From: Dickeya dadantii NCPPB 898
Lineage (GTDB): Bacteria; Pseudomonadota; Gammaproteobacteria; Enterobacterales; Enterobacteriaceae
Length of the DNA stretch: 32,000 bases
NCBI RefSeq assembly: GCF_000406145.1
Contig: NZ_CM001976.1
Coordinates: forward strand, 3,644,232 to 3,676,231
Direction of reading: 5' to 3'
Positions 6,469 through 29,844 of this stretch are shown here, one piece after another. Both the position numbers and the translations under genes were made by a program. Positions within the stretch are counted from its first letter, which is position 1, and each line of letters starts with the position of its first letter. The notes beneath the pieces are model-generated. The model was not told the origin of the DNA and did no database searches. It was given only the letters and a program-made list of their open reading frames with translations.

Positions 6469-7062
6469 ATGAAACCATTTCGTCTCTTTCTCTGCCTGCT
6501 GGCGTTGACGCTGACAACCGCGCAGGCGCAGCAACCCACGGCGCCGGTCGCCCCACCGGCATCGGTCTCCAACGCCCCCGCCGCGCCAGCACTAAATGAA
6601 CGCCAGGTTCAGAGCCAGCTCAATCAGTATTTGTGGGATGCCGCCCGCACCGGCAACGACGCCGTGATCCAGGAATTCATCAACGCCGGTTATAACCTCA
6701 ATACGCGCGATGAAAAGGGCTACAGCGCGGTCATTCTGGCCGCTTACCACGGTCATTACGACACGGTTTCGCTGCTGCTCAACCACGGCGCAGACCCTTG
6801 CCAGCAGGATAATCGCGGCAACACCGCACTGATGGGCGCGGCGTTCAAAGGCGAGCTGAAAATTGCCCGCCTGCTGCTGGCGGCCAAATGCAATCCGGAT
6901 ACCCGCAACCACGCCGGGCAGACCGCCGCGATGTATGCATCATTATTTCAGCGTGCGGAAATTCTCAAGGCGTTACAGGAACAGGGCGCGGATATGAATG
7001 CCACCGACGCGATGGGCAACAGCGTGCAGGCGTTGGGAAAAGGGGAAGTAAAAGGGCAATAA
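6469..7062 (+). CDS. ankB: Secreted ankyrin-repeat protein, AnkB-like catalase partner, 197 aa
   Basis: Signal peptide MKPFRLFLCLLALTLTTAQA. About four ankyrin repeats (G.SA.ILAA..GH...V.LLL.HGADP; GNTALM.AA..G...A.LLL). It lies 60 bp downstream of the catalase, as in the Pseudomonas katB-ankB operon. Confidence 0.8.
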   Translation: MKPFRLFLCLLALTLTTAQAQQPTAPVAPPASVSNAPAAPALNERQVQSQLNQYLWDAARTGNDAVIQEFINAGYNLNTRDEKGYSAVILAAYHGHYDTVSLLLNHGADPCQQDNRGNTALMGAAFKGELKIARLLLAAKCNPDTRNHAGQTAAMYASLFQRAEILKALQEQGADMNATDAMGNSVQALGKGEVKGQ

Positions 7063-7085: not shown

Positions 7086-7124
7086 CACGCCCCGCATGAA
7101 TCAATAACTTTCAGGCGGGGCGTG
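7086..7124. terminator. Shared hairpin between convergent ankB (+) and mgtS (-)
   Basis: cacgccccgc (7086-7095) / gcggggcgtg (7115-7124), a 10-bp stem with a 19-nt loop. On the - strand it is followed by ctatttta. Confidence 0.5.
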
Positions 7125-7149
7125 TGGTATCAGGCTGGGTTAGCATGAT

Positions 7150-7245
7150 TTAGTCATCCCATTTGGGGCTCAGAAAAGCGGCCAGAAATCCCGGAACAAC
7201 GATAACGGCCAATATCGCTAAATAAACAGTGACCTGTTCGATCAT
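7150..7245 (-). CDS. mgtS: MgtS (YneM) small inner-membrane protein, 31 aa; not in the supplied ORF track
   Basis: GGAGG then ttgtt then ATG (7245). Translation MIEQVTVYLAILAVIVVPGFLAAFLSPKWDD, compared with E. coli MgtS MLGNMNVFMAVLGIILFSGFLAAYFSHKWDD (from memory). Same length, a single TM segment, and the C-terminal GFLAA.(F/L)S.KWDD is conserved. Confidence 0.8.
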   Translation of the reverse strand: MIEQVTVYLAILAVIVVPGFLAAFLSPKWDD

Positions 7246-7857
7246 AACAACCTCCTACATCTGCATGTAACACGACCTCATGGTTTAACGACGCTTTCGC
7301 TCACTACACGATGATTTTATCGGCCGAAAGTTAAGCAAACATTAATATCTCGTTTATTGGTAAAAAATCAGAGCAGGACGAAAAACCTCAAATGACAGAT
7401 TCCCGTTCTCGTTTTCCAGCATCACGTTGGGTGCATCTACCGCCGATACATATAGTCACCCCCATCATAACCACTTGGTTAAAAAGCAGTTATTAGTAAA
7501 CAACGGTGCATTGCTCACGGAGAAAATTATACGCATGAATATATATTTAATTGTATATGCAGATTATTGATAATAATAAAAACCTATATTTATTGTCAGC
7601 AACACAAGAAAACAAAGAAAAAATGTAATGCTTTTTGATCACGCCGACCGCCAGCCTGTCATTACAAAAAATCGTATAAAAATACCGACCTTAAAAAAGC
7701 AGTTATAAGCCAGGCTGACAGACGACTAATACCCGCCACATCAGTATTTGTCGCGATTTTCCACATCGAAAGATTCCAGCGTCAAAGACTGATTACCCTG
7801 CCCGGCCTCTTCTTTCAGGGCAAAGGCGTCGAAGCTGTAGTCCATGGGGAGATAACA

Positions 7858-8205
7858 TCAACGGGCGACACTGACTTCCAGCGTCATACGAAACTGCTCG
7901 AACTCCACGTCAAAATCGTTATATTCAACCGTTTTATACGGTTTCAATACGGCCAGCGCCGTGCGTACCTGTTCACGCAAAGCGCGGGCCGCCGCCACGG
8001 TGTGGGCATAGCAATCAACGCTGACGGTAATGTACTGGTTCGCCAGTTGTTGTGTGCTGTTATAATTATTTTCCTGACTCAGAGAAAAAAGAATAAATGC
8101 GCATTGCTGATAAGACGAATGGTATAAACAACAAGGTACAGCATAGGAATAAACACGACCATCAGCCAGCTTACCCAGCAGCGGATAAATATCTTCTTCA
8201 GTCAT
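7858..8205 (-). CDS. Orphan phage tail-completion / head-tail joining-like protein (DUF3168-like), 115 aa
   Basis: IYPLLGKLADGRVYSYAVP ... ITVSVDCYAHTVAAARALREQVRTAL ... FDVEFEQFRMTLEVSV follows the DUF3168 / SPP1 gp17-like pattern as I remember it. The ATG at 8205 has a weak AAGG RBS. The ORF could extend to the ATG at 8343, which has no RBS. No other phage genes are nearby. Confidence 0.5.
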   Translation of the reverse strand: MTEEDIYPLLGKLADGRVYSYAVPCCLYHSSYQQCAFILFSLSQENNYNSTQQLANQYITVSVDCYAHTVAAARALREQVRTALAVLKPYKTVEYNDFDVEFEQFRMTLEVSVAR

Positions 8206-8422
8206 TTCTGTCAGCCTTATTTTTAAAGTACGTATATCGCAAACCTGTTTTACCAGCGCAAAGCCGTTAAAATGGTAAATCCCGAGTAAAACGTTGCGTT
8301 GCTTCGGTGGTGATAATAAAGAGAAATCACCTGATGCGCGCATGGTTCATGTTGTGCCATAGGCCGGCAATAAGCCAAAAGGCAAAACGCCACAAATATC
8401 CATATGTCGCCCACGGACACGG

Positions 8423-8460
8423 TAAAAAAGTCAGGTCGACGGAAAATACGCGGCCTGACT
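8423..8460 (-). terminator. Orphan minus-strand terminator-like hairpin upstream of the phage-like gene
   Basis: agtcagg (8429-8435) / cctgact (8454-8460) with an 18-nt loop. The adjacent A-run on + (8424-8429; a8429 also closes the stem) is the T-run that follows the hairpin on the - strand. No CDS ends here. Confidence 0.4.
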
Positions 8461-8565
8461 ACAGCACATCACCTTGTGTGATAAATACCGCAATTTAAAA
8501 AAACATGACGCCGCTTGCAGAATACGGCACGCATCCGCCCAATACCGAAAAATCACCTATACCCT

Positions 8566-8752
8566 AAATAATTCGAGTTTCAGGACAAAACGTGTTGCGT
8601 TTTGAACAACGCAACGCGTTGGCCCTTCAGGGCAAGGCTCATTGAGCCTTGTAACGCGGCAAGGGAGGGAATCCCGATGAGCTTACTCAGGTAAGTGATT
8701 CGGGTTACTGAGTGCAGCCAACGCACCTGCAACTTGAAGTATGACGGGTATA
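8566..8752 (+). repeat. ERIC (enterobacterial repetitive intergenic consensus) element, enlarged form with an internal insertion of about 70 bp
   Basis: The right half gaatcccgatgagcttactcaggtaagtgattcgggttactgagtgcagccaacgcacctgcaacttgaagtatgacgggtat matches the ERIC core (compare the ERIC primer regions GTGAATCCCCAGGAGCTTACAT / AAGTAAGTGACTGGGGTGAGCG). The left arm is aaataattcgagtttcagga. Extra DNA lies between the left arm and the core. Confidence 0.9.
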
Positions 8753-8994
8753 AAACAATATTTGCGTGGAGTCACAGATTCCCCGCTGACGGCCATTTTA
8801 TCCATAAGATCAGCGAATACGCCCTGACCCTCTCCCCGTGGCAAAAACTACTGTTTTGTCATGACGGTTTGACGGAGGAAAAATAACGCCGCCTGACACA
8901 TTCCAAATACGGGCGACAATTCTGAATACCGAATAATACCGCTATCCCCAAGAACGAAAACCGATAGCCAATGATTACCAGAGAGGACACTTTT

Positions 8995-9951
8995 ATGTGG
9001 AAACGCGTCATTTTAGCTTCAGCTGTGTGTGCGTCCCTGTCATCCGTCGCGCTGGCAGCGCCATTAACGGTGGGGTTTTCTCAAGTCGGTTCGGAATCAG
9101 GCTGGCGCGCGGCTGAAACCACCGTTGCGAAAGAACAGGCGAAAGCGCACGGCATTAACCTGAAAATTGCCGATGCCCAGCAAAAACAGGAAAACCAGAT
9201 CAAGGCGGTGCGCTCCTTCATCGCGCAAGGGGTGGACGCCATTTTCATTGCGCCGGTGGTGGCGACCGGCTGGGAACCGGTGCTGAAAGAAGCCAAAGAA
9301 GCCAAGATTCCGGTGATCCTGCTGGACCGCGGCATTGACGTCAAAGACGACTCGCTCTATCTCACCACCGTGCGCGCCGACAATATCAAAGAAGGGGCAT
9401 TGATTGGCGACTGGCTGATTAAAAACGAAAACGGCAAAGCCTGTAATGTGGTGCAACTGGAAGGCACCGTCGGCGCCAGCGTCGCCATTGACCGTAAAAA
9501 AGGGTTTGAAGAGGCCATCGCCAAAACGCCGAATATTAAAATCATCCGTTCCCAGTCCGGTGATTTCACCCGTAGCGGCGGCAAGCAGGTAATGGAAAGT
9601 TTTATCAAGTCGGAAAACAACGGCAAAAATATCTGCATGGTCTTCGCCCATAACGACGATATGGTGATTGGCGCCATTCAGGCTATTAAGGAAGCCGGCT
9701 TGAAACCGGGCAAAGATATTCTGACCGGCTCGATTGACGGCGTACCGGATATTTTCCGCGCCATGCTGGCGGGTGAAGCCAATGTCTCGGTCGAGCTGAC
9801 GCCGAATATGGCCGGGCCGGCGTTTGATGCACTGGAGAAATATAAAAAGGATGGCACGCTGCCGCCCAAATTGATTCTGACGCCGTCCACGCTGTTCAAA
9901 CCCGACAGCGCGCAGGCCGAGCTCGATAAGAAAAAGAACATGGGATATTGA
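8995..9951 (+). CDS. ytfQ: Galactofuranose ABC transporter periplasmic binding protein YtfQ, 318 aa
   Basis: The ATG at 8995 follows agagagga. MWKRVILASAVCASLSSVALAAPLTVGFSQVGSESGWRAAET...NMGY is nearly collinear with E. coli YtfQ (from memory). Confidence 0.95.
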   Translation: MWKRVILASAVCASLSSVALAAPLTVGFSQVGSESGWRAAETTVAKEQAKAHGINLKIADAQQKQENQIKAVRSFIAQGVDAIFIAPVVATGWEPVLKEAKEAKIPVILLDRGIDVKDDSLYLTTVRADNIKEGALIGDWLIKNENGKACNVVQLEGTVGASVAIDRKKGFEEAIAKTPNIKIIRSQSGDFTRSGGKQVMESFIKSENNGKNICMVFAHNDDMVIGAIQAIKEAGLKPGKDILTGSIDGVPDIFRAMLAGEANVSVELTPNMAGPAFDALEKYKKDGTLPPKLILTPSTLFKPDSAQAELDKKKNMGY

Positions 9952-19297: not shown

Positions 19298-19441
19298 AAA
19301 GTGTGCCGCAGCGCCTGTTCCTCCCCAACCGAATGCCGTATAACGGGTCATGCGCAGGTCTGCATCAGCCCTGTCGCCGGCAACGACCGGCCACCATGCC
19401 TTGCGGACCTCGCCCGCTATTGTCACGGAGGGGAGCTGACG

Positions 19442-20485
19442 ATGAAACATAACCCGGTCAACCTGCATCATCTGGATGCGGTGCGCCGTCTTTCGGCAAC
19501 AACAGCAATGTCGCCGGGCGATAACGTGCATCAGCGCCAGACTCAGGACGTCTACGCCCAGTCCCGCACCATTACCGCCTGGCAGCAAATTTACGATCAG
19601 GTTTCGCCGGGGCATTTCAACGGCGAGCTACAGGAAATCCTGCTCGACGGCATCCAGCTTTGTCACGAATACACCAGTCTGGCGCTACGCCAGTCTTGCA
19701 TGGTATGGCCGGACTCCTTCTGGTTCGGCATCCCGGCCCGTCATGTCGGGACCGGCTTCATCGGCTCCCACCCCATCAGCGACAGCGCGATTGCCGTCAG
19801 CCCCGGCGGTAAAGAGTTCGAACTGAACACGCCGGACGACTACGCCATTCTGGGGGTGGTGGTTTCCCACGACGAACTGCTGCAATACACCGACGCACTG
19901 GAAGAACCGGAACAGCTGACCCGTCTGCTGGCGCAAAGCGCCACGCTGCTGGTGGAGCCGCGCAGGCGTGAAATCTTCTGGTCGTTTCTGCGTGAAGCGC
20001 TGTGGTATGGCGGCCATGAACCGCAACGCCTGCGGCATAGCAATGCGGTCAAGGTATTGAAACACAACCTGCTGACCACGGTGATCTCGTTTCTGGAAAG
20101 CGCCCAGCCGGCCGTCGCCGGCACCGCGCACACCGACAAACGCATCGGCTACCGCAGCCTGATCGGCCGCGCCAGAGAATATGTACTCAGCCAGCAGTCG
20201 GAACCGGTCACCGTGCTCGACCTGTGCCGCCGCCTGCACGTCAGCCGCCGCACGTTGCAAAACGCGTTCTGCGATGTGCTGGGGTGCGGCCCCAACGCCT
20301 GGCTGAAGATGATCCGCCTCAACGCGGTACGCCGCGAACTGATCAGTCCTTATTCCTGCCACCGTACCGTGCAGGATGCCGCCATGCAGTGGGGGTTCTG
20401 GCACCTGAGCCAGTTCGCCTGCGACTACCAGCGGCTGTTTGATGAAAAACCATCGGTAACGCTCAAAGCGCGATTAGCTGGATGA
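19442..20485 (+). CDS. eutR: AraC-family ethanolamine operon regulator EutR, 347 aa
   Basis: The ATG at 19442 follows GGAGGGGAG. NLHHL...DNVHQRQTQDVY...TITAWQQIYDQ..PG.F.GE..EILLD.IQ...EYT.LALRQSC.VWP.SFWFGIPA...VTVLDLC..LHVSRRTLQNAF...G.GPNAWLK.IRLNAVRRELISP...V.DAAMQWGFWHL.QFA.DYQ.LF.EKPS.TL is collinear with E. coli EutR (from memory). Confidence 0.92.
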   Translation: MKHNPVNLHHLDAVRRLSATTAMSPGDNVHQRQTQDVYAQSRTITAWQQIYDQVSPGHFNGELQEILLDGIQLCHEYTSLALRQSCMVWPDSFWFGIPARHVGTGFIGSHPISDSAIAVSPGGKEFELNTPDDYAILGVVVSHDELLQYTDALEEPEQLTRLLAQSATLLVEPRRREIFWSFLREALWYGGHEPQRLRHSNAVKVLKHNLLTTVISFLESAQPAVAGTAHTDKRIGYRSLIGRAREYVLSQQSEPVTVLDLCRRLHVSRRTLQNAFCDVLGCGPNAWLKMIRLNAVRRELISPYSCHRTVQDAAMQWGFWHLSQFACDYQRLFDEKPSVTLKARLAG

Positions 20486-20533
20486 AAGGGGGAAAATCGG
20501 GCACGCGGAGGTCATGGATATCAGGCGGTATAT

Positions 20534-20559
20534 GACGAGCCGACGGGCATCGGCTCGTC
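20534..20559. terminator. Hairpin between convergent eutR (+) and the secreted-protein gene (-)
   Basis: gacgagccga (20534-20543) / tcggctcgtc (20550-20559), a 10-bp stem with a 6-nt loop. The flanks are only weakly T-rich. Confidence 0.5.
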
Positions 20560-20570
20560 GCTTCAGGCGA

Positions 20571-21017
20571 TCAATCCTGCCATTTTTCAATAATGACTTT
20601 CACCGTGCCAGAATTGTCCACACGCTGCCAGTCCTGGAGGTACAAGTCGAAGCCCCCGGTTTGCGGGAACGCATGAATGATGGCGGCGGCATGCATCCCA
20701 TCGTCATTCAGGCCGTAATAGCTGACGGCAGCGGTCTTATCCGAGGTGCTGGTGCGGTCATACACCATCAACGCCGCCGATTTTGAACGCGTATTACCGG
20801 CCTGCCCTGTTGCATAGTCAACCCCCGCCGAAGTCGGATCGATGCGAAAACGATAAACCCCCGACGCGATCGTGGTTTCATTGTAAGCGCTTCCGCCAGG
20901 GACAGTATTGTTATATCCATCCAGCGTCACGGTTTTATACGGCTGCCAGCCGGCCATCGCCGAGTAAGACGCCAATAACGACGCCGTAGCCACTAAAATT
21001 TTGGTAACGTTTTTCAT
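20571..21017 (-). CDS. Small secreted protein of unknown function, 148 aa (about 126 aa mature)
   Basis: RBS aagga. Sec signal MKNVTKILVATASLLASYSAMA|GWQPY. The mature part is Ser/Thr/Gly/Tyr-rich and looks beta-rich. No family recognised. Confidence 0.75.
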   Translation of the reverse strand: MKNVTKILVATASLLASYSAMAGWQPYKTVTLDGYNNTVPGGSAYNETTIASGVYRFRIDPTSAGVDYATGQAGNTRSKSAALMVYDRTSTSDKTAAVSYYGLNDDGMHAAAIIHAFPQTGGFDLYLQDWQRVDNSGTVKVIIEKWQD

Positions 21018-21258
21018 GATTCAATATCCTTCTGAATAAAGTAAAGAGCCGTAATATAGTTATCTATAAATTGTTTCCACCAAAGGTAATAAATATAACA
21101 CTAATTTTCAAAATAGATTAATAGCGTAATAAAAATCACCTGTCATATCTCGGTAAAAGACAAAATAAGATTCTTGTTGATGACACATGTTGATTGTTGA
21201 TGCTCTGCGTCACATGGCGACCGACGAATAAACAGAGAAAAGCGATGCTGTAATATAT

Positions 21259-21951
21259 TCAACAACGTTTCTTTTTTCCGGCTCCGCCGGTGTATTTATC
21301 CCATGAAGACGGTGTTTTTATCGCACATGCTTTTCCACACGGTGATGATGTCTCATCATCTTTCCACCACGTCGGCCAGCTGTGCCTTCCCGGCGAGTAA
21401 TGGTGTCGGATATAGTCGATAAATTTGACAACCTGCTCGTCTGTCGTCAGCCGACCATGCGCCGACTGACCTCTGGGAATAGCAGGGCGCAGTTCTGCAG
21501 GAATCACCAACGCGTTTTTACCGAAGTAATAAAACTCATCGGCAATTAAAACATACCTTCCTGATATATCGATCTTTTTATCACTTTCATCGTGGTGAGG
21601 ATTGGCTATCAGCTCAAAATGCTCATCATCGGTAGCCGTTGGTATCACCGGGCAATAAATATTGTCTCCGCATCGCCCTTCTGTTGTTTCACCAGGGCGT
21701 TTGTTTAAAAAGCGTGGATCGTAATAGTAATCACGAATAGTTATTTTTTCGCCAATCCGCATCAGATAAACCAGACGCTCTTCGCCCACAGGCTCCCCAG
21801 TCAAGGCAGCGGATGTAAACCCCGCAATCCACTGCCCCACCCGCTTTCTCAACCGAAAATGAGGCTTACAGGTTGCCAGTGTTAACGTCTCGCCAAATGG
21901 ATTTGGCGCGAATCCAGTATCGTGGGTCATTTTATAACTGAATAGCTGCAT
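21259..21951 (-). CDS. Nmad2-like (putative nucleotide-modification-associated domain 2) protein, 230 aa
   Basis: The ATG at 21951 sits 4 nt after GGAGG. MQLFSYKMTHDTGFAPNPFGETLTLATCKP.R..K.VG.WI.G, then GDNIY and FYYFG.NA..IP..LR, match my memory of this family. Family assignment needs HMM confirmation. It is flanked by AT-rich ORF-free DNA. Confidence 0.7.
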   Translation of the reverse strand: MQLFSYKMTHDTGFAPNPFGETLTLATCKPHFRLRKRVGQWIAGFTSAALTGEPVGEERLVYLMRIGEKITIRDYYYDPRFLNKRPGETTEGRCGDNIYCPVIPTATDDEHFELIANPHHDESDKKIDISGRYVLIADEFYYFGKNALVIPAELRPAIPRGQSAHGRLTTDEQVVKFIDYIRHHYSPGRHSWPTWWKDDETSSPCGKACAIKTPSSWDKYTGGAGKKKRC

Positions 21952-22224
21952 AAAACCTCCTATCGGATAAACGACAACCACGCCATGCGCGATAATAAAA
22001 ACAACGACAAAAACACTGAACGTTATTCATGGTCAGTTATTCTGACGAAGACCAATCAGAGGATATGAATAAAAAGGTCAACTATTCGGACCGACCAACG
22101 AAGTCCGTTGGACTTTTATTCCACACCGGAAATCAACACCAAAATAGAATATCCAGCAACTTCCTAAACGGAAAATGGATCATTGCCAGATGAAGTATTC
22201 CCACGTTTCATCCGGCAAGCGTGG

Positions 22225-23202
22225 TCACGCACTCAGCGCATCAAACGCGCGGCGTATGTCGTCTTCCGGCAACCGGATGCCGATAAACACCATCACGCTT
22301 TCGCGCGGTTCATCGGCGTGCCATTCCCGGTCCCAGTCGGCGCTGTAGAGCCGCTGCACCCCCTGAAACAGCAGGCGACGGTCATCACCGTCGATCGCCA
22401 GCACGCCTTTATAACGCAGCAGGTTGTCGGCGCAGTTGACCAACAATTGCTCCATCACCGCCGATACCGCCGCCATGTCCACTGGGCGCGTCAGCCGCAC
22501 CACCAGCGAAGTGATGGCGTTATCCTGTTCGATCAACGGCCGAAAACGCGGCAGAGAAACCGACAGGCGATCGTTGAGCATGAAACCGTCGACACCGAAG
22601 ATCTGGCGATGGTCGATCTGGCCGTTAATCACCCGATGCAGACTGGCGCGCGCGTTGATCCGTGCCAGCCTTGACTCCAGCGCCGAGGTATCGCCCGCCA
22701 GGTCGGTCTTGGTCAGCAATAAACGGTCGGCGTAGCCCACCTGCGCCTGCGCTACGGTATGCCGGTTCAACTGGTCATCGGCGTGCACCGCATCCACCAA
22801 CGCAATCACGCCGTCCAGCAGAAAACGCTGGCTCAGGCGCTCGTCGGAAAAAAAGGTCTGAATCACCGGCCCCGGATCGGCCATACCGGTGCATTCGATC
22901 ACCAGTCGGTCGAAGACCAGTTCGCCGCGATCAATCCCGTCCAGCAGGTCATGCAGCGCGTCGGACAGCTCGTTGGCGCTGCTACAGCAGATGCAGCCGT
23001 TGCTCAGTGTGGTAATGCGGGTCGCCCGGTCGCCCAGCAAGGCGTCATCAATCGCCACCGCGCCGAATTCATTTTCAATCACCGCGATCTTTTCACCGTG
23101 ATCGGCGTACAACAGGTGCCGGAGCAGCGTGGTTTTACCGGCGCCGAGAAAGCCGGTGAGAATGGTCGCGGGTAATACGTCTGCGGGTACTGAATGGGTC
23201 AT
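22225..23202 (-). CDS. yjiA: COG0523 GTPase / zinc metallochaperone-like YjiA, 325 aa
   Basis: LTGFLGAGKTTLLRH.L....G.KIAVIENEFG...DD.L.GDRAT.I.TL.NGCICCS..NEL.DAL.DLLD...G...FDRLVIECTGMADPGP.IQTFFS and ...LLRYKG.L.IDG...RLLFQGVQRLYSADWDR.W are collinear with E. coli YjiA. Confidence 0.93.
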   Translation of the reverse strand: MTHSVPADVLPATILTGFLGAGKTTLLRHLLYADHGEKIAVIENEFGAVAIDDALLGDRATRITTLSNGCICCSSANELSDALHDLLDGIDRGELVFDRLVIECTGMADPGPVIQTFFSDERLSQRFLLDGVIALVDAVHADDQLNRHTVAQAQVGYADRLLLTKTDLAGDTSALESRLARINARASLHRVINGQIDHRQIFGVDGFMLNDRLSVSLPRFRPLIEQDNAITSLVVRLTRPVDMAAVSAVMEQLLVNCADNLLRYKGVLAIDGDDRRLLFQGVQRLYSADWDREWHADEPRESVMVFIGIRLPEDDIRRAFDALSA

Positions 23203-26740: not shown

Positions 26741-28425
26741 AGCTGGCTTTCCTCACAAGGCAGGGTCAGATGGATATGGGTGTAACGGTCAGGCTCGCAT
26801 TCCACGCTCAGGCCATAGTCGTTGCCGTAACGGCTGCGGATGCGTTTATCCACCAGATTCATCCCCAGCCCGGTGCAGTTGGTGCGAGGCTGGTACAGGC
26901 CGGCATTATCCTCGATGCTCAGCAACAGGCGGTCGCCCTGCCGGCTGGCGCTGATGGTGATGATGCCGGTACCCAGCAGATGCGCCGTACCGTGCTTGAT
27001 GGCGTTTTCCACCAGCGGTTGTAACGAGAACGCCGGCAACCGCATCGACATCAGCGCCGGCGGCAGATTGAAACGGATCTGTAGCCGCTCCTGAAAACGG
27101 GCTTTCTCGATTTGCAGATAGGCGTTCACATGTTCGATCTCATCGGCCAGTGTAACAACTTCTTCAGAGCGTTTGAGGTTCTTGCGAAAGAACGTCGACA
27201 GCGACTGCACCAGCCGGCCGGCCTGTTCGCTGTCGCGGCGGATCACCGCCAGCAGGGTATTGAGCGCGTTAAACAGGAAATGCGGGTTGACCTGGGCATG
27301 CAGCAGCTTGATTTCCGACTGCGTCAGCAACTGCTTGCTGCGCTCATACTGACCGGCCAGGATCTGCGCGGCCAGCAGGCTGGCGATACCTTCGCCGAAG
27401 GTGCGATTGATCGAACTGAACAGGCGGTTTTTGGCCTCATACAGTTTGATGGTGCCGATCACCTGCTGATTTTCACCGCACAGCGGGATCACCAGCGTCG
27501 ATCCTAAACGACAGGTGGACTGCAACGAGCACTGGTAAGGCGTTTCGTTGCCGTCGGCGTACACCACCTCGTTGTGTTCGATGGCGCGCCGGGTATGACC
27601 CGATGCGATAGGCGTTCCCGGCAAATGGTGGTCGTCGCCGATGCCGATAAAGGCCAGCAGCTTTTCGCGATCGGTGATCGCCACCGCGCCGATGTCCATC
27701 TCCTGATAGATCACCTGCGCCACCCGCATGCTGTTTTCTTCGTTAAACCCTTGGTGCAGGATACCTTCGGTGCACGCGGCGATTTTCAACGCCCGCGCTG
27801 AAAACGCCGAAGTGTACTTTTCGAACATCGCGCGCCGGTCCAGCAGGATGCGCATAAACATCGCCGCGCCAATGCTGTTGGTGACGATCATCGGCGCCGC
27901 AATGTCCTTAACCAGCTTCAGCGCGTCGTCAAACGGCCGTGCCAGCGACAAAATAATCGCCATTTGCAGCAATTCGGCGATAAACGTCACCCCCGCCACG
28001 GTAAAGGGATTGAACAGCCGGTCGACCCGGCCGCGACGCATCAGCAAACGGTGCGCCATGCCGCCCAGCAGCCCCTCGACGATGGTCGATACCATACAAC
28101 TGAACGCGGTCATACCGCCGAGTGAATAACGGTGCAGCCCGCCGGTCATCCCCACCAGCATCCCCACGCCCGGCCCGCCGAGCAGGCCGCCCAGCACCGC
28201 GCCGATCGCGCGGGTATTGGCGATGGAGTCCTGCACATGCAGCCCGAAATAGGTGCCCATGATGCAGAACATGGAAAACATGGCGTAGCACAACAGCTTA
28301 TGCGGCAACCGAACCGTCACCTGCATCAGGGGGATAAACAGCGGCGTTTTACTGAGCAGATAGGCGATCACCAGGTAGACGCACATCTGCTGGAGCAACA
28401 GTAAAACCAGTTTGAACTCATACAT
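26734..28425 (-). CDS. btsS: LytS-family sensor histidine kinase BtsS (YehU), 563 aa
   Basis: The ATG at 28425 ([42 protein letters not shown]) compares with E. coli Yeh[24 protein letters not shown]... The 5TM-Lyt, GAF and HK regions are collinear. Its stop overlaps the btsR start (ATGCTGA). Confidence 0.93.
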
Positions 28426-28531
28426 GATAAAAACTCGGACGGGGCAAAAAAACCGGGAATCGGACGATTCCCTGAGGAGCATACCCTAACACAAACTCGC
28501 GACGTTACCTTGACGCGTTTCACTTATTTGG

Positions 28532-28658
28532 ACACCCGTCATATTCCACTGCCACGTTGCAGATGTTTGCCATTGTCGCTCACCCCGTCACTGACTTGAG
28601 TCAGCGACGGGGATGTGCTGCATTGCCGTCTTTCTGCATCCCGAATTATTTCGGGTAT
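28532..28658 (-). repeat. ERIC element, canonical length of about 127 bp, inverted orientation
   Basis: acacccgtcatattccactgccacgttgcag...cgctcaccccgtcactgacttgagtcagcgacggggatg...ctgcatcccgaattatttcgggtat shows both ERIC arms and the central inverted repeat. Confidence 0.85.
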
Positions 28659-28888
28659 GCGCTTTATTAAACTAAAACGTTATACCTGGCTACAAGATTA
28701 TATTTAACTAAAACCCCTGCATTGCATTAAACACGCCGCATTGAATAAAAAACTAACCGCACGCCAGATATGCACTAAAAACACATCACCTATAAAAATA
28801 TCTTGCGCTAAATATCAATACAGGATTGATACCGAATTAACGTACCGTTTCATCAATGCATGAATAACGTGTTGAAGGATTCAGCGTA

Positions 28889-29197
28889 TTACAACGCTTT
28901 GGCGCTCCCGGCCCATTCGGAGTAAAAGTGACCCGAGCAAATTGCCGGTTCAATCGTTTTAATATCTACCCGGACCAACCCCAGATTGACGAAAGGATCG
29001 TCTGACAGCGCGGCGGTCACTGCCGCACTATCCGTGGTATAAGCCAGAATAAACCCACCGGTGCCGTCTTCTAACGGGCCGGCAAAAACCACTCGCCCTT
29101 GTTTAATATTATCGGCAAGCCACTTTTTGTGTGCATCAATATGCTTTTCAAGTTCATGTTTCGTGCTGGAATATTCAAGCGTAATAGCATGTAACAT
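28889..29197 (-). CDS. YciI-like (YCII-related) small protein, 102 aa
   Basis: The ATG at 29197 sits 5 nt after AAGGTGG; the track start at 29206 is a GTG inside the RBS. H...H..WL......G.V.FAGP..DG.GGF.L........A......DPF........V.I is the YciI-family pattern. Confidence 0.75.
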   Translation of the reverse strand: MLHAITLEYSSTKHELEKHIDAHKKWLADNIKQGRVVFAGPLEDGTGGFILAYTTDSAAVTAALSDDPFVNLGLVRVDIKTIEPAICSGHFYSEWAGSAKAL

Positions 29198-29220
29198 CGT
29201 GACCACCTTAATTAAGTGAG

Positions 29221-29844
29221 TTAGGCAGCAAGAGAGTCAATAATTGACTGAATTGATGATTTGGCGTTTTGGATTTCACGATTTCTTATTTCATCGCCTT
29301 TTGACGCCCCTTCCGCACGAACGAAATAAATATCGGTAATACCGAGGAACCGAAAAAAAGCCTGAAGATAGCGCTCCTGAAAATCCATACCGGCAAAAGG
29401 CTGTTCGGCATAAAAACCGCCGCGCGCGGAAACCACAATCACGGTTCTGCCGCCGGACAGACCTACCGGCCCGGTTTCGGTATATTTAAATGTCTTTCCT
29501 GCCTGCGCAATTCTATCCAGCCAGGCTTTCAGTTGGCTGGATACGGAAAAGTTGTACATCGGCGCGCCGATCACAATCACGTCATTAGCCAGAAACTCTG
29601 CCACCAATTGTTCGGAGATCACGTGCTCCTGCAACGTTGAACTGTCCGCCGACACTGACGCTATCTGGCGGAAACCAGCGGCAATGGCGCCGGTCAAATG
29701 ACGGATTTCATGTTTCACGACATCACGGTAAGACACGGAGGCCTGCGGATGGTGTTTGACTAACCGCGCAATAACATCAGCGGAAATCTGCCGTGTCACT
29801 GAGCCGTCTTCAAGAATACTGGAGTCTATATGTAAAACTTTCAC
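29221..29844 (-). CDS. azoR: FMN-dependent NADH-azoreductase / quinone reductase (AzoR family), 207 aa
   Basis: GTG start at 29844, 5 nt after GGAGAGG. MKVLHIDSSIL...VIVIGAPMYNFSVSSQLKAWLDRIAQAGKTFKYTETGPVGL..GRTVIVVSARGG...FL.F.GITD..FV.AEG parallels E. coli AzoR. It may be a paralogue rather than the orthologue. Confidence 0.8.
   Translation of the reverse strand: MKVLHIDSSILEDGSVTRQISADVIARLVKHHPQASVSYRDVVKHEIRHLTGAIAAGFRQIASVSADSSTLQEHVISEQLVAEFLANDVIVIGAPMYNFSVSSQLKAWLDRIAQAGKTFKYTETGPVGLSGGRTVIVVSARGGFYAEQPFAGMDFQERYLQAFFRFLGITDIYFVRAEGASKGDEIRNREIQNAKSSIQSIIDSLAA

Follow-up and report, generated by a model that had tools for sequence, protein, structure and literature searches.

What does a gene of the Nmad2 family do where it stands without the gene that usually follows it? 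The question is raised by a locus of Dickeya dadantii NCPPB 898, in which a 230-amino-acid (aa) open reading frame (ORF; 21259-21951, minus strand) of this family lies in an AT-rich islet beside yjiA. The window, that is the whole stretch of 32,000 nucleotides that was analysed, holds no copy of the usual partner gene, Nmad3. The gene is a solo representative of a known family whose biochemistry is uncharacterised, and the label 'Nmad2 family' is already attached to it in public records. It is under purifying selection and lies on an islet that was acquired horizontally. In the reading that best combines the evidence, the protein would bind, and perhaps process, a non-standard base or nucleotide and would have a role in conflict with phages or other foreign DNA; the probability of this reading is put at roughly 45%.

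Membership in the Nmad2 family

The assignment to Nmad2, made in the first-pass annotation from sequence blocks, was borne out by the profile search. Pfam PF18753 matches with E 5.8e-48 (163.5 bits against a cut-off of 26.1), and residues 2-199 align to positions 3-199 of the 200 in the profile. The protein is a single domain of 230 aa with no second domain; Nmad2 proteins generally have one domain and about 200-230 aa, and the best 150 representatives are mostly 190-260 aa long. Residues 1-200 make up the domain core and residues 201-230 a Cys/Lys-rich tail that is specific to Dickeya. All of the family-invariant alignment columns (36/36) are retained in the window protein, and the invariant residues are also retained in 13 aligned Dickeya orthologues. 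The invariant set, taken over 48-49 sequences including the window protein, comprises D11, G13, F14, P16, P18, T24, C28, K29 and R33, followed by W41, G95, D96, I98, Y99, D128, Y142, F143, G144 and P193.

A search with the profile yields 2,864 clusters at 50% identity, and the best matches outside Dickeya are only about 60% identical to the window protein. A tblastn search of 50,697 phage records from GenBank gave no Nmad2 match, IMG/VR contained only two distant loci, and the 16 matches on plasmids are likewise distant, none above about 37% identity.

Usual partners and their absence from the window

The relatives of the gene are mostly found in pairs. Ninety loci were collected from metagenomes, viral contigs and one Pseudomonas protein, 78 of them with at least 600 bp downstream of Nmad2. 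The Nmad3 gene (PF18754) lies directly downstream on the same strand in 65 of these 78, often with overlapping stop and start codons. Two more have an Nmad3 of divergent sequence, giving 67 paired loci (86%), or 59 of 70 when nine near-identical copies from Pseudomonas are reduced to one. Among the nearest relatives outside Dickeya, all those with readable flanks (54-62% identity; Pseudomonas, Metapseudomonas, Microbulbifer and metagenomes) are paired, and so are three of three further close relatives that were looked up separately. Clustering of the ORFs neighbouring Nmad2 gave no recurrent neighbour besides Nmad3. Two true Nmad2-Nmad3 fusions (485 and 522 aa) were found, and such fusion proteins explain why the two families merge in BLAST clustering. 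Descent of the two as paralogues was considered and rejected, the hhalign probability being 1% for what is merely an 18-column motif resemblance.

The genes found around the pair include those of a relaxase plasmid or integrative and conjugative element, of Tn7-like TniB, TniQ and Mu-type transposases, Wadjet JetB, ParE and RelB/ParE toxin-antitoxin genes, and an AEP primase-helicase. In Microbulbifer bruguierae (L176, 9570-13772) the pair adjoins a restriction gene of the Mrr type and a type I HsdR gene, the same kinds of gene as those in the E. coli slot beside yjiA. An ORF of 137 aa without a Pfam match directly precedes the pair in a Pseudomonas-type element (L082-L089; for example L082, 5574-5987) and in two other loci, and a 401-aa ORF and an NYN/OST-HTH protein lie on the downstream side; these three are possible lineage-specific accessories of the cassette. 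A minority of more distant Nmad2 genes occur without Nmad3, some apparently solo and others after a ThsB-type TIR gene. The TIR-linked genes lie in nucleotide-metabolism clusters, such as TIR-Nmad2-MazG/MazG_C-UDG in the locus L171.

The first-pass annotation had described the gene as standing alone, and this holds for the whole window, which contains no Nmad3, ThsB-type TIR, thymidylate-synthase-like, deoxynucleoside monophosphate (dNMP) kinase, 5-hydroxymethyldeoxyuridine (5-hmdU) DNA kinase, MazG_C or UDG gene. Neither tblastn nor an Nmad3 hidden Markov model (HMM) found Nmad3 in the 32 kb or in the 241-bp spacer downstream of Nmad2, which occupies Nmad3's place in the canonical cassette. 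A tblastn search of the window with the four partners of Nmad2 in the E. coli DS-4 system, and with the TIR, MazG_C and UDG proteins of L171, gave chance-level matches only (E at least 0.02). Because the usual partner is missing from the whole window, the canonical Nmad2 system is incomplete there. The tail of the window protein, IKTPSSWDKYTGG, was likened by eye to the start of Nmad3, ILSRKGFDSTAGG. A remnant of Nmad3 was rejected, since the Nmad3 HMM with all filters off found nothing in the three minus-strand frames of the window and of two D. oryzae loci, and tblastn likewise. We infer that the Dickeya lineage took up, or retained, only the Nmad2 half.

A partner of another location would change this picture. 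The linkage of Nmad2 and Nmad3 is tight, even to the point of fusion, which makes a physical complex likely, and the genome view here is 32 kb; Nmad3, a ThsB-type TIR protein or another partner might thus be encoded elsewhere in the Dickeya genome. Such a split system is very improbable. The partner is adjacent in all other loci examined for it, usually so close that stop and start codons overlap, the islet passes between species with no partner alongside, and no named Dickeya protein is present in the best 120 of more than 7,470 Nmad3 matches, although this last is a weak test.

Selection on the solo gene

The solo Nmad2 gene is under purifying selection. Under neutrality 77% of the differences would be expected to be non-synonymous; the comparison with D. 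oryzae gave 31 synonymous and 22 non-synonymous differences (p = 1.8e-8), and that with D. dianthicola 24 of each (p = 3e-5). The ratio pN/pS is 0.16-0.25 in the domain core, while the tail is near-neutral, on very few changes. The 13 aligned Dickeya members of the cluster are full-length (229-230 aa). Since the solo arrangement is common to all Dickeya alleles and loci examined, it is most parsimonious that the divergence of the Dickeya genes postdates any loss of Nmad3 and that selection acted on the solo gene. The Nmad2 half is probably still a working protein, because selection has kept the domain core and every family-invariant residue.

The same comparisons bear on the idea of a genomic fossil, that is a functionless Nmad2 surviving from an Nmad2-Nmad3 cassette after Nmad3 was lost. 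The dN/dS of Nmad2 (0.18-0.49) is several-fold above that of the neighbouring genes (0.02-0.13), and by this measure constraint on the gene is relaxed relative to them. A fossil would also agree with the absence of a partner that 86% of related loci possess, with the roughly neutral evolution of the tail, with the loss of a nearly invariant Arg (R155C) in the allele of D. oryzae and D. dianthicola, and with the visible decay of the adjoining ORF, orf148, in several species. It is nevertheless unlikely, given the strong selection on the core, the full-length ORF across several species, the retention of every invariant residue and the conservation of the ribosome-binding site with about 170 bp upstream. 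The recent spread of the islet between species would moreover be unexpected for dead DNA.

Distribution in Dickeya and exchange between species

Clustering at 90% identity places the window protein among 18 members, and all of those that are named come from Dickeya: D. dadantii (including strain 3937), D. dianthicola (58 contigs), D. solani, D. oryzae and 'multispecies Dickeya'. A D. dadantii assembly matches the surrounding 11 kb at 98.5% identity and has its genes in the same order. The order cstA/btsT-like, yjiX, yjiA, Nmad2, orf148 or its remnant, and eutR recurs in D. oryzae, D. dianthicola and further Dickeya loci. The slot has the following parts in the window:

22225..23202, minus strand: yjiA (CobW-family GTPase), the core gene bounding the islet (NCBIfam PRK11537, E 3.4e-171)
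about 20461-22182: variable segment of 1.72 kb with orf148 and Nmad2, delimited by blastn of the window against the D. undicola locus (L002) and by the empty-site sequences
20571-21017, minus strand: orf148, a 148-aa signal-peptide protein (GC 0.54; no Pfam or NCBIfam match)
19439..20485, plus strand: eutR (AraC-family regulator), the core gene at the opposite border of the variable segment (NCBIfam PRK10130, E 1.2e-178)

In D. undicola the slot is empty, with about 95 bp between the stretches that align at the yjiA and eutR ends. Three states of the slot are thus found in Dickeya (empty, Nmad2 with orf148, and Nmad2 with a broken orf148), and no recognised defence gene is present in any of them. 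The view of Nmad2 as cargo of a single strain did not hold, for the same slot is filled in at least D. dadantii, D. dianthicola and D. oryzae, and D. solani is represented in the 90% cluster. Because the slot is filled in several species and empty in D. undicola, Nmad2 is an accessory gene over much of the genus, neither strain cargo nor universal.

The composition of the gene is foreign. Its GC content is 0.478, against 0.61 in yjiA and eutR and a window mean of 0.566, and its codon-adaptation index, with 12 neighbouring genes as reference, is 0.36 against 0.62-0.75 for those genes. GC at third codon positions (GC3) is 0.45 in every species compared and 0.62-0.83 in the flanking genes; as GC3 is the same in every species, Nmad2 has not drifted toward host composition. 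On the strength of GC3, the codon-adaptation index and the empty D. undicola site, the islet is horizontally acquired in D. dadantii and carries an orphan Nmad2. The first-pass annotation had arrived at horizontal acquisition from the contrast between AT-rich DNA and GC-rich core genes on both sides. Its conclusion stands; of the two neighbours only yjiA fits the description, as the left neighbour is orf148 (GC 0.54), itself part of the variable segment. Universal presence with core-like composition, which the annotation had named as contrary evidence, was not found.

Exchange of the islet was studied in a sliding comparison of D. oryzae and D. dianthicola (loci L001 and L180, in window coordinates). 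Identity is 0.77-0.89 in cstA, yjiA and eutR, 0.92-1.00 over the islet (about 22200 to 20710), and drops beyond it. Synonymous divergence (dS) between these two species is 0.046 in Nmad2 and 0.53-1.08 in the flanking genes. Between the window and D. oryzae the values are 0.23 and 0.6-1.1, and between the window and D. dianthicola 0.17 and 0.20-0.27. Since identity is 92-100% in the islet and 77-89% in its flanks, one islet allele, that with the broken orf148, appears to have crossed recently as a unit between D. oryzae and D. dianthicola. The crossovers would fall no more than about 150 bp from the edges of the islet. The sharp identity boundaries at these edges imply a cassette-like interspecies exchange without a visible mobility gene.

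No integrase, transposase, terminal repeat or defence gene was found around the islet, and no target-site duplication or terminal inverted repeats at its borders. A 19-nt inverted pair at the borders (I1) was set aside as an apparent chance similarity involving the yjiA-proximal hairpin sequence, which is present in D. undicola too.

The second gene of the variable segment, orf148, shares it with Nmad2 yet differs in composition. It is intact only in D. dadantii; an internal deletion has removed 224 bp of it in D. oryzae, and in D. dianthicola no more than a remnant is left. Nmad2 stays intact where orf148 is broken, and orf148 is probably not a functional partner of Nmad2. The named species among its 25 homologues are from Dickeya, Pectobacterium, Pantoea stewartii/ananatis, Burkholderia gladioli/glumae and Cronobacter. 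A paralogue adjoins mukB in D. zeae, and orf148 is a candidate small secreted plant-interaction factor.

Predicted structure and possible function

The AlphaFold2 model of the window protein is a confident one, with a predicted local distance difference test score (pLDDT) of 86.3 and a predicted template modelling score (pTM) of 0.82. The tail (residues 201-230) has pLDDT below 50 in the model and is likely disordered. The best-ranked Foldseek matches are mostly PUA-like and comprise the N-terminal domain of Thermococcus McrB with 5-methylcytosine (m5C) DNA, the EVE domain of THYN1 with 5mC DNA, and ASCH, bacterial EVE and YTH proteins, all of them non-significant. A search of BFVD gave weak DUF3850 matches only. 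A PUA-like fold is accordingly no more definite than a weak hint from the model, which may serve as a lead. For Nmad3 a confident model was obtained (pLDDT 90.3); Foldseek found no significant structural neighbour for it, and Nmad3 had no match in PADLOC, PHROGs or NCBIfam.

In the proposed mechanism Nmad2 would form a small barrel like those of PUA, EVE and ASCH proteins. A pocket lined by the invariant aromatic residues W41, Y99, Y142 and F143 would receive a non-standard base or nucleotide, and chemistry might be carried out by the invariant Asp11, Cys28-Lys29 and Asp96. In a full system Nmad2 would hand over to Nmad3 or to a TIR protein. Alone in Dickeya it would bind or hydrolyse modified nucleotides or nucleic acid by itself, most probably in phage conflict, and the solo protein would then have a putative function in defence or modification.

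Several results weigh against this proposal. The best Foldseek match in the Protein Data Bank (PDB) has E 0.06 and probability 0.69, with TM scores of 0.36-0.50, so that none is significant, and no PDB sequence matches Nmad2. A relaxed Pfam scan of 48 family members returned Nmad2 only and no PUA-like family, and hhalign of Nmad2 against a THYN1 EVE sequence entered by hand gave a probability of 0.5%. NCBIfam, PADLOC and PHROG have no match for the window protein. To these are added the missing Nmad3 and incomplete canonical system, the relaxed constraint and the R155C substitution described above, and the absence of any other recognised defence or mobility gene among the window ORFs, of which not every one was scanned. 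In the one study that places an Nmad2 gene in an experimentally supported system (DeWeirdt, Mahoney and Laub, PMC13092281), that system, DS-4, is not taken up in the main text, and the role of its Nmad2 component is never dissected separately.

A domesticated role outside defence is an alternative. Nmad2 might clear or salvage modified nucleotides, read RNA or DNA modifications, or have a function in life with plants. The gene keeps a fixed position across several Dickeya species under selection, no recognised defence or mobility gene lies nearby, and the named members of the orf148 family are mostly from plant-associated bacteria. PUA-like domains also include housekeeping enzymes, for example the ASCH-domain N4-acetylcytidine amidohydrolase YqfB. 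On the other side, the contexts of the Nmad2 family are overwhelmingly those of mobile elements and defence, the gene shows no compositional drift toward the host, and its absence from D. undicola and exchange between species are typical of accessory and not of housekeeping genes. A machine-learning study also scores Nmad2 genes as defensive (PMC13092281). Such a role is rather unlikely.

Within the preferred reading, in which Nmad2 recognises a non-standard base or nucleotide in conflict with foreign DNA, a bolder version can be formulated. The solo Dickeya protein would be a self-sufficient, single-protein immune or nucleotide-surveillance factor, a divergent PUA-like barrel with an Asp-Cys-Lys centre that acts on a hypermodified base or nucleotide without Nmad3 or TIR. 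This is quite unlikely as it stands. The Ackermannviridae phages that infect Dickeya carry thymidines derived from 5-hmdU, and these are a possible example of a target. If the bolder version were true, the exchange of the islet among Dickeya species would reflect phage-driven selection, and the protein would offer the first biochemical handle on the whole Nmad2 family.

Gene start, signals and spacers

The first-pass annotation had reported a 230-aa ORF preceded by a GGAGG ribosome-binding site and flanked by about 240 and 270 bp of AT-rich DNA; direct reading of the sequence agreed with it on each of these points. The strand, for which the annotation had no entry, is the minus strand. The features of the gene and its spacers are:

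21259..21951, minus strand: Nmad2 coding sequence, 230 aa (ORF list and Pfam PF18753), with the ATG start codon at 21951-21949
21960-21956, minus strand: ribosome-binding site GGAGG, 4 nt upstream of the ATG (direct reading of the sequence)
21992..22020, minus strand: candidate sigma-70 promoter, TTCAGT, 17-nt spacer, TATTAT (hand-read; weak, 8/12 matches; below the scanner threshold)
21952..22224: upstream AT-rich spacer, 273 bp, GC 0.421
21018..21258: downstream AT-rich spacer, 241 bp, GC 0.315

The ATG is the likely start because homologues begin at the MxLFSYKM position; an alternative GTG start at 21981 is unlikely for the same reason. It would give 240 aa, which is the length of the D. 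dadantii 3937 record Dda3937_03176. The ribosome-binding site is kept as GGAGG in D. oryzae and is GAAGG in D. dianthicola. A scan for consensus promoters upstream of Nmad2 found no site, and the sigma-70 promoter at 22020 to 21992 is a weak, hand-read candidate. Its region is invariant in five Dickeya loci except for one A/T difference inside the -35 hexamer. About 170 bp 5' of the start (21952-22125) hardly differ between D. dadantii, D. dianthicola and D. oryzae; this stretch is conserved beyond the synonymous sites of the flanking core genes.

Two hairpins are present in the upstream spacer. One (22218 to 22183) adjoins yjiA and is common to D. undicola. The second, with a T-run (22096 to 22076, minus strand), would halt read-through from yjiA. 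An Rfam scan of the spacers gave no credible RNA gene.

Other low-GC stretches of the window

Low GC is not unique to the Nmad2 islet. A second AT-rich islet at about 7100-8970 (GC 0.39-0.48 against the mean of 0.57) is bordered by a gene for a secreted ankyrin-repeat protein (6469-7062, plus strand) and by a 326-aa ORF (8971-9951, plus strand) that reads as a putative periplasmic sugar-binding protein. Its sole sizeable ORF encodes 161 aa (7858-8343, minus strand) and has no Pfam match. A third stretch of lower GC (28200-29400; 0.45-0.48) overlaps a flavodoxin-like/FMN-reductase gene (29221-29844, minus strand).

Comparison with known systems

The slot was equated in the first-pass annotation with the mrr-hsdRMS-mcrBC site of E. 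coli K-12, the immigration control region, and the position agrees: both lie at the same 3' end of yjiA, in the order btsT-yjiX-yjiA-mrr-hsdRMS-symE-mcrBC in E. coli K-12 and cstA/btsT-like-yjiX-yjiA-Nmad2 in the window, with foreign DNA in both. The content is unrelated, and the other border in Dickeya is eutR. The generality implied by an immigration-control-type hotspot did not follow. In a survey of 81 Enterobacterales loci that covered homologues of the immigration-control genes, with other classes of defence gene not screened, mrr/hsd/mcr homologues lie downstream of yjiA in 4/81, all four in Escherichia, and only the three slot states described above occur in Dickeya. A general defence hotspot at yjiA is not established.

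Among the PUA-like readers (EVE, ASCH, YTH and the McrB N-terminal domain), to which the model of Nmad2 bears a faint resemblance, several serve as modification sensors in defence. We know of no PUA-like reader with the invariant Asp/Cys-Lys/Asp set of Nmad2. In the Metis system the PUA-like domain of MisA senses N6-methyl-dAMP (m6dAMP) released from degraded host DNA (bioRxiv 10.1101/2025.11.05.686725). MisA is a working analogy only, with a resemblance in possible mechanism and not in family membership.

DS-4 of E. coli is the only experimentally supported setting for the Nmad2 family. According to the DefensePredictor paper (DeWeirdt, Mahoney and Laub, Science 2026, PMC13092281), the system was validated against phage, with a roughly 0.9-log drop and a plaque-size flag in the plaque-assay row for lambda. 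Five genes make it up: one thymidylate-synthase-like, one for a dNMP kinase, one 5-hmdU DNA kinase-like, one for a ThsB-type TIR protein, and an Nmad2 gene (WP_047174762.1) that overlaps the TIR gene by 7 bp. Another E. coli Nmad2 is scored there as a predicted defence gene, and predicted systems with an Nmad2 domain are illustrated. The earlier statement that the family is known only from comparative-genomic prediction is therefore superseded by DS-4, while the part of it that concerns biochemistry stands, and a literature search found no paper on the biochemistry of Nmad2. Over 160 residues the window protein and the Nmad2 of DS-4 share 35% identity (E 4e-28), and the window holds no homologue of the four remaining DS-4 genes.

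The closest comparison is the Nmad2-Nmad3 cassette (PF18753 with PF18754), a module predicted to act in nucleotide modification or conflict. The window shares with it a full-length Nmad2, all the invariant residues and DNA of foreign composition; it differs in having no Nmad3, in the extra 30-residue Cys/Lys-rich tail, and in a fixed chromosomal slot within one genus, apparently in place of a mobile element or defence island. Apart from the cassette-like exchange at this fixed slot the gene is an ordinary small accessory gene and not a new kind of system. The Nmad2 family nevertheless recurs in mobile and defence contexts with no known activity, and a naturally solo, selected Nmad2 in a plant pathogen amenable to genetics (D. 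dadantii 3937, Dda3937_03176) offers a simple setting for finding out how the Nmad2 half acts by itself. The answer would help to interpret both the Nmad2-Nmad3 pair and the TIR-linked systems of the DS-4 type.

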